64,000 nucleotides of DNA from Polyangiaceae bacterium. Its GTDB lineage: Bacteria; Myxococcota_A; Polyangia; Polyangiales; Polyangiaceae. A program made the position numbers and the translations under genes. The notes beneath the pieces were generated by a model. It had not been told where the DNA came from. It did not search any database and was given only the letters and a program-made list of their open reading frames with translations. Shown one piece after another: positions 13,762 to 16,161 of the stretch. Within the stretch, counting starts at the first letter, position 1. Every line of letters starts with the position of its first letter. The stretch covers positions 4,684-68,683 of the forward strand of contig DASXKQ010000250.1 of assembly GCA_036496745.1 (NCBI GenBank). Direction: 5' to 3'.

Positions 13762-13859
13762 TTGGGCCTCAAAACACCACGCTGTCCTCCGGACATGCGT
13801 CTGGCCTCAGCGACGCGCGTCCAGCACCTGTTGCGGTTCCCACACGCTTCTCGATAACG

Positions 13860-14340
13860 TCAGTGCCCGGCCCGGAAGATCGGCCACGCGATCTCCGTGC
13901 GCCACAACATGGAGTCCGAGGTATTGAAGCCGTCGACGAGATAGTACTCGCGCACAGGTCCATCGACGCCGACCTCGTGCTCGGCGACGTACGTGCCAAG
14001 CGCTGCGTACGTCCGATCCACATCCGTGTGAGCGAACCGCAATCGCCAGCTCGGCCGCGGGAACGACCAGCGGCCGCGTACGGCCCACGGCACTCGCCGT
14101 TCCCGCTGCGGACACAAAGACGGTCGCGTCGCCCTCTCCATTCATGAACACCTCGGTCGACCAGAGAGCGCCGGAGGGACCCGCCGCCTTCAAGCCCTGT
14201 GAGCGGAGCCCGTCGTAGAGCTCGGCTTAGCCGGGGTGCATCCAAGCCGCGACCTCCTGCACACGGATGCGATCCGAGAGATGGCAAGCGTAGAAGCTTG
14301 CGGCACGGCTCGTTGCTCCACAGCGATTCGTGCCACCGGC
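13860..14340 (-). pseudogene. Decayed GyrI-like effector-binding domain (MerR-family regulator C-terminus)
   Basis: Consecutive fragments in different frames: IAVEQRAVPQASTLAIS / DRIRVQEVAAWMHPG*AELYDGLRSQGLKAAGPSG..VVPAAELAIAV / HTDVDRTYAALGTYVAEHEVGVDGPVREYYLV..WRTEIAWPIF. No N-terminal HTH is present. Confidence 0.75.
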
Positions 14341-14505
14341 GCGGAGCCCGACGACCGCCGACGTTCAATCGTCGGCGACTCGTCGGCAGCCTTGACTGCG
14401 TTACTCAACAATCGCCGCGTTGCTGATCGGCGATGCCAACGATTTCGCTTCGGTGCACGAGGAGGGACTTGAACCCCCACGCCTTGCGGCGCCGGAACCT
14501 AAATC
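14340..14505. repeat. Direct repeat copy 1 (att-like): tRNA-Leu 3' 52 nt plus ~113 nt of downstream flank
   Basis: Matches 15967-16131 except for a 1-nt indel (gagcccgac vs gagccgac) and one substitution (ggcagcctt vs ggcaacctt). Confidence 0.95.
14454..14505 (-). other. Truncated tRNA-Leu 3' fragment (anticodon loop to discriminator); att remnant
   Basis: Identical to 16080-16131; lacks the D-arm and the 5' acceptor strand. Confidence 0.93.
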
Positions 14506-14518
14506 GGGGGCGCTTGGC

Positions 14519-14553
14519 GCGAACGGCTGCGAACGGCTGCGAACGGCTGCGAA
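14519..14553. repeat. Tandem 10-bp repeat (GCGAACGGCT x3.5)
   Basis: Read directly from the sequence; begins 13 bp inside the att fragment. Confidence 0.9.
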
Positions 14554-14579
14554 TGAGCGCATTTCTTGATCGCGGATGC

Positions 14580-14599
14580 GCTCGTTGGGGCTCGTTGGG
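14580..14599. repeat. Tandem 10-bp repeat (GCTCGTTGGG x2)
   Basis: Read directly from the sequence. Confidence 0.8.
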
Positions 14600-14637
14600 A
14601 GCGGTTGCCGACGATATTTCGACGATTGACAACGCCG

Positions 14638-14916
14638 TTAGGCGACCTGCAGAAGCTTCACCTTGAGGGCCTTCGACGCCTTCGCGAGAGTCGCCAGCGT
14701 GACACCCGTGTCGTGCGGGTCGAGCAGCCGGTGAACGACCGTGCGGCTGGTCCGCATGGCCTTGGCCAGCTCCACTTGGGTCATTTTTTGTCGCGTCATC
14801 GCTCGCTCGATCTTCGCGGCCAAGAGCTTCTTCTGAGTCAGAAGCTCGACCTCCTCGCGCTCGCCTAGTTCCTCGAAGAGTGAGTCGAGGGTCGAACCGA
14901 TGTACTTCTTCTTCAT
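14638..14916 (-). CDS. XRE/Cro-like HTH antitoxin (HigA-like)
   Basis: YIGSTLDSLFEE, MTQVELAKAMRTSRTVVHRLLDP..VTLATLAK. Starts 1 nt after the toxin stop. Confidence 0.88.
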   Translation of the reverse strand: MKKKYIGSTLDSLFEELGEREEVELLTQKKLLAAKIERAMTRQKMTQVELAKAMRTSRTVVHRLLDPHDTGVTLATLAKASKALKVKLLQVA

Positions 14917-14917
14917 G

Positions 14918-15268
14918 TTAGGTCTCCGCGTCTTTCATCCGTCGGCGAGCAAGATCGAGATCCGACTTGGGTGTCTTCTGGCTCTTCTTGTGGAAGCCGT
15001 GCAGGAGCACCATCGTGGAACGGTCCAAGCAGAACAGAACCCGATAGATGTTGCCGTCCAGGTTGCTGCGAACCTCGAATAGCCCCGCGCCGAACCCATC
15101 CACGAGAGGCTTGCCGATCGGCCACGACCATTGCACTTGACCGATGTCCGCCCCAATTTCTTTGCGAACCGCCGGAGACAGCGATCTGATCCAATCCCGA
15201 ACCGGCTCGTTGCCGGTCGGCGTTTGGTAGAATCTGCATTCGAGCGTCGGCTTCTTGCGTGCGGCCAC
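14918..15268 (-). CDS. Type II toxin, RelE/ParE superfamily (Gp49/HigB-like)
   Basis: FYQTPTGNEPVRDWI, GLFEVRSNL..IYRVLF, MVLLHGFHKKSQKTPKSDLDLARRR. Toxin-before-antitoxin gene order. Confidence 0.92.
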   Translation of the reverse strand: MAARKKPTLECRFYQTPTGNEPVRDWIRSLSPAVRKEIGADIGQVQWSWPIGKPLVDGFGAGLFEVRSNLDGNIYRVLFCLDRSTMVLLHGFHKKSQKTPKSDLDLARRRMKDAET

Positions 15269-15277
15269 ACTTCGCTG

Positions 15278-15306
15278 ATTGTACCGAAAAAGGTACAGAT
15301 ACGCAA
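15278..15306 (-). promoter_or_regulatory. Sigma70-type promoter of the TA operon (TTGCGT-N17-TACAAT) overlapped by the palindrome TGTACC-N6-GGTACA
   Basis: On the minus strand, -35 is at 15306-15301 and -10 at 15283-15278. The palindrome spans 15280-15297; the GTG start is at 15268. Confidence 0.75.
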
Positions 15307-15381
15307 GCGCGATCGGTCGATGACTCGTTGGAAACTCGCTGCGCCAAGCTCGAAGGCCTGCGCGATGATACTCTCTTGGGG

Positions 15382-15939
15382 ATGAGCGAGTCGCGGGAAA
15401 TCCAGCTCATAGGCGATGCGCACGTGCGGCCGTTGCGCGATGACGAGGTAGACGAGGCGTACGGCGTCTACCTCGAAGCGGTGGGATGGCTGCGGTGCGC
15501 TGGCATTCGACAGTGGATGACGGCGATGCCGCGAGCGCGCTTCGACGCTCGGCAAGATCATGACGAGAACTTCGGGTGGTTCGTTAGCGGAGAGCTCGCG
15601 GCGATTTTCTCGATCGTCCGAGAGGTGACGGCGCACTGGCAACACGTGCTCGCGGGCGATGAGCCGCGCCCTTGGCTGAGCACACTCGTCATGGCAGCTC
15701 CATTTCGCGGTTCCGGCCTCGGAGCGTATGTAGTGACAAGCGCGCTCAAGGTGCTGCATGCGCAGGGGGAACCGACCGCGTATTTGGATTGTTCGGACGC
15801 TGGATTCTTGCCGGATTTCTACCAGCGACTCGGCTTCCGAGTGCTCGATCGCAAGAGCGTCACGTACGCGAGCGGCGACACCTATCCAATGGTGCTCATG
15901 AGTCGGAACCTTGACAACTTGGCTCATCCCGCTGCATGA
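15382..15939 (+). CDS. GNAT family N-acetyltransferase
   Basis: Motif A (LSTLVMAAPFRGSGLG) and motif B (YLDC..LPDFYQRLGF). Confidence 0.85.
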   Translation: MSESREIQLIGDAHVRPLRDDEVDEAYGVYLEAVGWLRCAGIRQWMTAMPRARFDARQDHDENFGWFVSGELAAIFSIVREVTAHWQHVLAGDEPRPWLSTLVMAAPFRGSGLGAYVVTSALKVLHAQGEPTAYLDCSDAGFLPDFYQRLGFRVLDRKSVTYASGDTYPMVLMSRNLDNLAHPAA

Positions 15940-15966
15940 GCTCATCCCCGAGCTCAACAAATTGAA

Positions 15967-16131
15967 CGCGGAGCCGACGACCGCCGACGTTCAATCGTCG
16001 GCGACTCGTCGGCAACCTTGACTGCGTTACTCAACAATCGCCGCGTTGCTGATCGGCGATGCCAACGATTTCGCTTCGGTGCACGAGGAGGGACTTGAAC
16101 CCCCACGCCTTGCGGCGCCGGAACCTAAATC
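15967..16131. repeat. Direct repeat copy 2 (overlaps the intact tRNA-Leu 3' half)
   Basis: See copy 1. Contains the nested hairpin CCGACGA-CC-GCCGACG-TTCAAT-CGTCGGC-GAC-TCGTCGG (15974-16012). Confidence 0.95.
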
Positions 16132-16161
16132 CGGTGCGTCTGCCAATTCCGCCACTCGTGC
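16080..16161 (-). tRNA. trnL-TAG: tRNA-Leu (anticodon TAG); CCA not encoded
   Basis: GCACGAG/CTCGTGC acceptor stem, TGGCGGAATTGGCAGACGC D-arm, CCGGA-TTTAGGT-TCCGG anticodon arm, long variable arm CGCC-GCAA-GGCG, and GGTTCAAGTCC T-arm. Confidence 0.97.

Follow-up and report, generated by a model that had tools for sequence, protein, structure and literature searches.

The 64,000-nucleotide stretch of Polyangiaceae DNA analysed here (the window) holds, beside its tRNA-Leu(TAG) gene, an islet of 1.6 kb whose three intact genes encode a HigB/Gp49 toxin, an XRE antitoxin, and a GNAT-family acetyltransferase. This islet probably descends, by loss of the integrase, from a family of tRNA-Leu(TAG)-specific islands, hereafter family A, which would make it a non-autonomous relic of the cis-mobilizable element (CIME) type. 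The islet appears to keep both attachment (att) arms of such an island, instead of being an element that was purpose-built to a minimal size. A previous sequence-only reading had preferred a minimal satellite-like element, with a deletion relic of a larger island as its fallback; the integrase remnant found at 15920–16021 gives precedence to the fallback. Altogether, the islet holds both arms, a tRNA half broken at the anticodon loop, and 33 integrase codons joined to the GNAT gene at its 3' end.

The integrase remnant and the family it comes from

In the islands of family A, the attP site consists of a P arm, a core at the anticodon stem-loop, the tRNA 3' half, and a P' arm, and the integrase gene converges on the tRNA, its end lying inside the arm-type repeats of the P' arm or immediately beyond them. 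These islands were compared across the genus, which comprises 47 species of metagenome-assembled genomes (MAGs) recorded publicly as Polyangiaceae or Polyangiales. The full element is found in G051, a 100% complete MAG, where it spans 21.6 kb and runs from tRNA-Leu(TAG) through the P' arm, a convergent integrase of 375 aa (PF00589) whose stop codon falls inside the arm-type repeats, and a cargo that includes AbiE, to the P arm and the partial tRNA. A second full integrase, with 80% identity and the same arm and tRNA-Leu(TAG), is encoded in La2, another Polyangiales MAG. Truncated integrases of the family stand at the same place in G042 and in G020, the latter in a 7-kb island with a fragment of 142 aa, and G043 keeps the 3' end of the gene at a contig end. 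Paralogues of this integrase clade, with 46–57% identity, are located beside tRNA genes for Leu-TAA, Leu-CAA, Phe, and Lys.

In the window, the last 33 codons and the stop codon of a tyrosine integrase of this family (WLIPLHELIPELNKLNAEPTTADVQSSATRRQP, followed by the stop) occupy positions 15920–16021 of the plus strand. The remnant is convergent on the tRNA, its last codons overlap the arm-type repeats, and its TGA at 16019–16021 falls just past them, so that strand and position are those at which the integrase ends in full elements. When family-A integrases are used as tblastn queries, the window is matched at 15920–15988, where WLIPLHELIPELNKLNAEP aligns with WLVNLHEHIPEFKNSNAEP of the G020 fragment (12 of 19 identities, E = 4e-5; E = 7e-4 against G051). 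The first ~19 codons of the remnant match the C-termini of these integrases, matches are also obtained at the DNA level with blastn and nhmmer (E = 5e-4 to 4e-3), and the DNA and protein alignments are colinear with the integrases of G020, G051, G043, and G042. The similarity does not extend upstream of 15920, and the last ~7 codons of the GNAT gene read the remnant in another frame, which together point to the loss of the integrase by deletion, with a predicted junction at about 15915–15920. No integrase domain is present within the islet, where only the 33-codon 3' remnant was found. The sequence-only reading had placed nothing but a toxin, an antitoxin, and a GNAT between the repeats; these three genes are there, although the integrase remnant has to be added to them. 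The G051 element of 21.6 kb with its intact integrase, the G020 island of 7 kb with its 142-aa fragment, and the window islet of 1.6 kb with its 33-codon stump appear to form a graded decay series.

The direct repeat and the attachment arms

The tRNA-Leu(TAG) gene, on the minus strand at 16078–16161, is intact (ARAGORN; Rfam RF00005, 53.9 bits) and is the sole tRNA gene that ARAGORN and Rfam detect in the window. A displaced tRNA 3' half, which constitutes the core side of attR, lies on the same strand at 14452–14505 and is 100% identical over 54 nt to positions 31–84 of the tRNA. A repeat search of the window returned both as parts of a direct repeat of 165 nt with 98% identity (14348–14512 and 15974–16138), and the aligned copies (166 and 165 nt) reach 14340–14505 and 15967–16131, their differences being one 1-nt indel and one substitution (G at 14390, A at 16016). 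The remaining 115 nt (14391–14505 and 16017–16131) are identical without interruption up to ...AAATC, the 5' edge of the anticodon loop, which sets the repeat boundary inside the tRNA gene at 16131/16132. Beyond this edge, five of the next seven bases still match, and the left copy mimics the anticodon stem past the break (CCCGA versus CCGGA), as in an attP core.

Read in the orientation of the tRNA, each copy begins with the 54 nt at the 3' end of the tRNA and continues into an arm of 104–112 nt (~110). The intact tRNA and the second 3' copy breaking at the anticodon loop, both described in the sequence-only reading, are therefore confirmed by the repeat search and by ARAGORN and Rfam, as is the repeat length of ~165 nt, whereas its figures for the tRNA part (52 nt) and for the arm (~113 nt) have to be corrected to those given here. 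In a search of the own genome, a MAG of 7.05 Mb in 374 contigs, the second repeat copy is recovered with E = 5e-79, and no further copies of the arm were found. A full tRNA accompanied by a partial 3' copy, with the break at the canonical sublocation of the anticodon loop, is the arrangement by which tRNA-targeting elements are recognised. The 5' part of the tRNA gene (16132–16161) is host-derived, while the 3' part (16078–16131) would have been supplied by the element as part of attL. The proposal that a tyrosine integrase acted in the anticodon loop gains support from this att anatomy and from the existence of the cognate family, which the sequence-only reading had suggested to look for and which is now known from full-length members in G051 and La2 and truncated ones in G020 and G042.

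The P' arm on the attL side (repeat copy 2, 15967–16077, minus strand) holds the conserved block GATTGTTGAGT and, at 15991–16011, two tandem 11-bp arm-type repeats, GCCGACGAGTC and GCCGACGATTG, which are putative integrase-binding sites. Homologous arms follow copies of tRNA-Leu(TAG) in 10 other MAGs, and the blocks that are invariant across them are GATT(C/G)TTGAGT and the two tandem 11-bp repeats, (G/C)CCGACG(A/T)T(A/T)T. The second copy of the P' arm (repeat copy 1, 14340–14451, minus strand) contains both arm-type repeats as well as the last ~17 integrase codons.

The P arm on the attR side (14506–14631, minus strand) carries three sets of 10–11-bp repeats, and the repeat search of the window also returned inverted repeats (I1 and I2) that support it. 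The core-adjacent set consists of 3.5 units of GCAGCCGTTC (14517–14553), the second of two units of CCCAACGAG (14580–14599), and the third of an arm-type pair (14609–14629) that is inverted relative to the P' arm. The 21-nt double motif CGACGA-N5-CGACGATTGA has three matches in the 64 kb, against 0.00 expected: one in each copy of the P' arm and one, inverted, in the P arm. Over ~125 nt, the P arm aligns with the P arms of the islands of G020, G058, and G022, including a block of 46 nt that is 98% identical to G020 and another of 32 nt that is 100% identical to G058. This homology stops ~10 nt short of the cargo, with sharp edges against unrelated cargo genes. The CCCAACGAG pair is kept in the relatives, whereas the core-proximal GCAGCCGTTC repeat varies in copy number. 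The occurrence of these arms with other cargo, which the sequence-only reading had considered worth searching for, was found in G022, G020, G058, and G051, where they surround AbiE genes and islands of 7–22 kb. Together with the existence of the cognate integrase family, this runs counter to the outcome that the sequence-only reading had named as refuting it.

The arm had also been described as structured. The window copy does fold (z = -3.6), but the 12 homologous arms share no conserved fold: the consensus energy of their alignment is -2.2 kcal/mol, with no helix over the conserved blocks, and a conserved RNA structure was consequently rejected. Rfam finds no match in the arm, its only match being the tRNA.

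Proposed history of the islet

According to the reading preferred here, a full family-A element would have integrated by strand exchange in the anticodon loop, and this newcomer would have brought its own tRNA 3' half and P' arm, displacing the previous ones by 1.6 kb. An internal deletion would then have removed the integrase and other genes, sparing GNAT and the HigB/XRE pair, the retention of which would be favoured by post-segregational killing. In addition, the remains of an earlier family-A element, a stump, would already have stood behind the tRNA at the time of this insertion.

This last step would account for the length of the repeat, which measures ~165 nt rather than ~55 nt because the displaced copy carries the P' arm too. 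The two copies start to match within the integrase remnant, at the codons AEP, and since the left copy holds integrase 3' codons, it must include element-derived sequence and not just the flank of a tRNA. Similarly, in G058 the distal arm relic lies beside an integrase pseudogene fragment. The long repeat is therefore best explained by insertion beside an older relic of the same family, rather than by a need of the integrase for unusually long identity between attP and attB.

Several observations weigh against this history. The match of the integrase remnant is short (19–23 codons), and it owes its significance to the small search space and to positional agreement. The two repeat copies are 98% identical, compared with 76–86% between the arms of different species, so that an older stump would be plausible only if the earlier element was a close relative or if gene conversion has acted. 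Moreover, no parent element holding GNAT together with HigBA was found anywhere, and in the left flank no significant integrase remnant extends beyond the 17 codons shared by the two copies.

Alternative explanations and present mobility

It is possible, although unlikely, that the islet is an active mini-satellite, a 1.6-kb unit mobilised in trans, excised and reintegrated as a circle by a family-A integrase of another element, with arms kept by selection for this mobility. This explanation overlaps with the derivation from a larger island, as a deletion derivative can also be mobilised, and what it adds is ongoing mobility as a unit. It draws on the completeness of both arms, with all three repeat sets and both cores, on the intactness of the three cargo genes, and on the many integrase-less islets of 1–3 kb in the genus that combine conserved arms with varied toxin-antitoxin and abortive infection (Abi) cargo. 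Furthermore, the arms are conserved in blocks (the 46 nt shared with G020 contrast with much less similar neighbouring sequence), which suggests selection on putative binding sites instead of neutral decay. On the other hand, the out-of-frame integrase stump fused to GNAT looks like a deletion accident, and the evidence on present mobility is unfavourable. With attL and attR both complete, the islet could formally leave as a 1,626-bp circle without damage to the tRNA, and, as described for CIMEs (PMC5704250), the arrival of a family-A integrase could lead to its excision, alone or together with the incoming element. No match to such an integrase was found in the islet's own MAG, which is 98% complete, and the islet is for this reason a fixed passenger at present. 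Neither the other genomes of the genus nor any other assembly or metagenome contig contains the same cargo with these arms. Exact-pattern scans of metagenome contigs revealed neither empty-site nor circle junctions, a test of low power, as rare forms are not assembled and only exact matches count. The lack of a cognate integrase, the uniqueness of the islet, and the lack of junction contigs together argue against current mobility.

A broader version of ongoing mobility, which we regard as rather more doubtful still, would see the whole tRNA-Leu(TAG) locus as an integron-like accretion array, in which short toxin-antitoxin and Abi cassettes, each delimited by a tRNA half and conserved arm sites of at least two families, are inserted, excised, and shuffled in trans by integrases from elsewhere or from transient helpers, and the islet is still mobile. 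If this were true, the 1.6-kb HigBA-GNAT unit would be a cassette of a defence or addiction "library", and not dead debris.

Improbable is also the proposal that the arm is native, that is, chromosomal sequence downstream of the tRNA that was captured into attP, so that a single integration into a virgin site would yield the 165-nt repeat. In agreement with it, the arm stands immediately behind the full tRNA in G014, G021, G054, and G043, and behind the most distal partial copy in G009, and the divergence of the arm between species (76–86%) is about that of the neighbouring FKBP gene (74–80%). However, both copies in the window, like the arms of G020, G051, G042, and G043, hold the 3' end and stop codon of an integrase, a part that by origin belongs to the element, and the distal arm relic of G058 has its integrase pseudogene fragment. 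In addition, the arm is detected in only about 10 of the 47 congeners, and an inverted copy of the arm-type motif lies in the P arm of the element.

An origin without any integrase, be it by tandem duplication, by Campbell-type homologous insertion of a circle over the 165 nt, or by an assembly chimera of two strains, is very hard to credit. In its favour, ~165 nt of 98% identity would suffice for recombination by RecA, and the contig comes from a metagenome assembly. Against it, the repeat ends exactly at the anticodon loop, like the partial copies in other genomes, the sequence just beyond the break mimics the anticodon stem like an attP core, the P arm has its homologues in islands that bear an integrase, and an assembly artefact is unlikely as the source of the two copies because they differ at two positions, their 115 nt of exact identity can be resolved by a large-k assembly graph, and the same architecture recurs in the independent MAGs G022, G004, and G003.

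Cargo genes and left flank

The toxin gene (14918–15268, minus strand) encodes a HigB/RelE-type protein (Gp49/DUF891) of 116 aa that matches PF05973 over the whole model (positions 1–90 of 90; 81.8 bits, E = 4e-23) and, weakly, the RelE/ParE family TIGR02683; homologues with 74–75% protein identity exist in other contexts in G024 and G004. The antitoxin gene (14638–14916, minus strand) encodes an XRE/HigA-type helix-turn-helix protein of 92 aa with weak matches to HTH_26 (22.2 bits, just over the cut-off of 22) and HTH_3 (21.7 bits, below the cut-off of 23). An identity look-up of this protein returned only the source contig, a JGI metagenome contig of 90 kb, and therefore gave no alternative context. 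The toxin gene lies upstream of the antitoxin gene, and its stop codon abuts the XRE start (14916/14918), which is the gene layout of HigBA-type modules and makes the pair a predicted type II toxin-antitoxin system.

Outside the islet, a 253-nt fragment on contig C190 of the same genome (C190:923-1198) is 96% identical to the 5' half of the XRE gene and the 3' end of the HigB gene. It sits between an OsmC-like gene and a glycoside hydrolase gene, away from any tRNA, and is a decayed second copy of the islet's toxin-antitoxin module. Intact homologues of the module, with 76% DNA identity and no GNAT, are found on G024:C932 and G004:C96.

The third gene, on the plus strand, starts at 15328 (the JGI gene call) or 15382, ends at 15939, and encodes the GNAT-family acetyltransferase (PF00583, E = 6e-6). 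It stands alone and divergent from HigB, with no small partner open reading frame (ORF), and it matches no PADLOC family and no specific NCBIfam model. A toxin of the AtaT/TacT/KacT type was rejected owing to the lack of an adjacent RHH/DUF1778 partner and of a family match, and a known defence gene was rejected owing to the lack of a PADLOC or specific NCBIfam match.

To the left of the islet, between the older arm copy and an ECF anti-sigma gene, the ORF list and the GC content at third codon positions (GC3) delimit a decayed coding sequence (13762–14339, minus strand) with one in-frame stop codon (TAA near 14228) and one frameshift (near 14141). Its C-terminal part (13860–14141) resembles, by eye, effector-binding domains fused to MerR/AraC regulators, with no Pfam match for the sequence, which could be a leftover of the island or a host gene in decay. 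An integrase remnant was considered and rejected for this region: there is no significant protein or DNA similarity, and a likeness to "DAIRE" seen by eye was dropped.

The tRNA-Leu(TAG) locus across the genus

When the genomes are searched with a 50-nt pattern for the tRNA 3' half, at least 16 of the 47 contain two or more copies, with up to seven in one, and BLAST adds more diverged copies. All the partial copies start at tRNA positions 23–47, mostly at 27–33, within the anticodon stem-loop. They are mostly spaced 1–3 kb apart, with some islands of 5–22 kb, and the annotated genes between them are mostly addiction and abortive infection genes. AbiEi/AbiEii are found in G022, G020, G014, and G051, HicA with a MerR-HicB fusion in G024, Fic in G007, and a probable PIN fragment in G023, the last read from the sequence by eye, with no Pfam match. 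A DUF6036-like nucleotidyltransferase of ~190 aa is recurrent and forms a cluster of 12 members. Among the islands examined, intact integrases are present only in G004, G010, and G051, and integrase pseudogenes in G017, G020, G042, and G058, the small toxin-antitoxin and Abi islets between tRNA halves being mostly devoid of an integrase. In G022, an AbiE islet is located between two copies of "tRNA half plus arm", as in the window.

A second family of att arms (B) is characterised by a highly conserved P arm of ~47 nt, GCGAAATCCGCNTTTCGCTACATCTCGCGGCATCTCGATACACGCCA, directly before tRNA-Leu(TAG) halves that start at position 26–27. It is found in at least six congeners (loci L017, L018, L020, L021, L024, L028), three units being arranged in tandem in G024 (G024:C20 558-4339). 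Family-B units are 1–2.3 kb long and contain HicAB, a PAS histidine kinase, a Fic protein, or a DUF6036-like nucleotidyltransferase. Neither an integrase nor a conserved P' arm accompanies them, and the gene for the nucleotidyltransferase is often convergent with the tRNA half, at a distance of no more than ~20 nt. The largest array of the genus is that of G048 (99% complete), where six tRNA-Leu(TAG) 3' halves lie 1.0–10.2 kb apart in G048:C90:42014-60667 and a seventh on another contig; this genome encodes no close relative of either type of tRNA-Leu(TAG) integrase.

A third att type is represented by G004:C3 3012-4442 and G010:C709:2071-3494, each with a full-length integrase (open frame of 543–548 aa; 76% identical to each other) that reads directly into a tRNA-Leu(TAG) half starting at position 33. 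The sequence after the G004 half is nearly identical to that after the full tRNA in G009, and the G004 layout resembles either an unsplit attP or elements in tandem. These integrases were considered as the cognate enzyme of the window islet and rejected, given their different att type, their identity of 51–52% to the family-A fragment, and their different flanks. The best relative of the G004-type integrase in the window's own genome is 46% identical.

Two variants of tRNA-Leu(TAG) exist in the genus, which differ in a compensated pair of the variable arm (GGCGCC...GGCGTG versus GGTACC...GGTGTG). Within each genome, all partial copies agree with the resident full gene in this variant, which argues for exchange within sublineages or for homogenisation. 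Other rearrangements are more local. In G003 (C66 3888-5455), several 19–21-nt copies of the tRNA 3' end (GGCTCAAGTCCCTCCTCGTGCAC) are interspersed with a unit of ~85 nt, a local tandem amplification downstream of both the full and the partial tRNA. In G058 (C1 41166-45395, joined coordinates), IS21-like (istA/istB) and IS3-like insertions have entered a family-A island of 16.9 kb, which shares gene blocks with the G051 element and is without the integrase end.

At this locus, an attachment site from an uncultured myxobacterial lineage can be dissected at the level of the sequence, with its core, its three sets of 10–11-bp arm repeats, and an integrase stop codon in or past the arm-type repeats. 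The decay series shows addiction modules outliving the mobile elements that brought them, and one tRNA gene becomes in this way a long-lived store of toxin-antitoxin and abortive infection genes. Should the small units turn out to be mobilised in trans, the locus would count as a natural cassette system of a different kind from integrons; otherwise, it would represent textbook island decay, of use mainly for the annotation of such relics in MAGs.

Comparison with known systems

The closest likeness is to CIMEs, a concept first described, together with tandem accretion, for ICESt1-related elements of Streptococcus thermophilus, and since reviewed (PMC5704250). Like a CIME, the islet sits in the 3' part of a tRNA gene, lies in tandem with decayed elements, and would be mobilised only with or by a newcomer of matching specificity. 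It has no integrase, excisionase, or transfer gene among its three cargo genes, it retains attL and attR, and its integrase stump and the graded series point to decay from an autonomous element of the same att specificity. The islet differs from known CIMEs in its host, an uncultured Polyangiaceae lineage, in recombination at the anticodon loop, and in long arms of 110–125 nt; moreover, the parent islands lack a recognised conjugation module in the parts examined, and any mobilisation of the islet is hypothetical.

Arrays of partial tRNAs with degenerated elements have also been reported for the tycheposons of Prochlorococcus (bioRxiv 10.1101/2020.12.28.424599). Both there and at the locus of this genus, elements and degenerated remnants are found between partial copies of one tRNA, with scattered integrase fragments and with the newest insertions nearest to the tRNA. 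Integrase family and host are different, however, and the cargo consists of HigBA, HicAB, AbiE, Fic, PIN, and DUF6036-type nucleotidyltransferases instead of genes for nutrient acquisition. Furthermore, the integrase-less units outnumber the integrase-bearing ones in this genus.

The anatomy of the islet is that of a lambda-type attP, with the core at the anticodon stem-loop and a tRNA 3' half from the element that restores the gene, and with putative tandem arm-type repeats spaced 10–11 bp, ~100 nt on each side of the core and inverted between the arms. The systems compared are lambda Int and those of the P4/L5 type, along with the preference of integrases for particular sublocations within tRNA genes; the usual identity block measures 15–60 nt. 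The block of ~165 nt in the islet is much longer, which is attributed to the older relic and not to a need of the integrase, and a further difference is that the integrase stop codon is inside or just past the arm-type repeats.

Other assignments do not agree with the gene content. With only a 33-codon remnant in place of its own integrase, the islet is not an autonomous tRNA-targeting element, and with only HigB, XRE, and GNAT, and no integrase or genes for replication, packaging, or helper sensing, it is not a phage satellite of the kind of phage-inducible chromosomal islands (PICI) or P4. It is not an integron gene cassette either, as it has no conserved hairpin and no integrase adjoins the tRNA in the window. 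Integron cassette arrays, in which short, mostly promoter-proximal, and often toxin-antitoxin-bearing units with conserved site ends stand in tandem and the recombinase is encoded outside the units, serve as an analogy only. At the locus of this genus there is no adjacent IntI-type integrase and there are no attC hairpins, the sites being tRNA halves and arms, and the integrase stumps inside the units indicate that these arose by decay and not as cassettes. The islet is, in sum, an ordinary kind of relic, a CIME-type decay product in a tRNA-island accretion array, with an unusually clear att anatomy.

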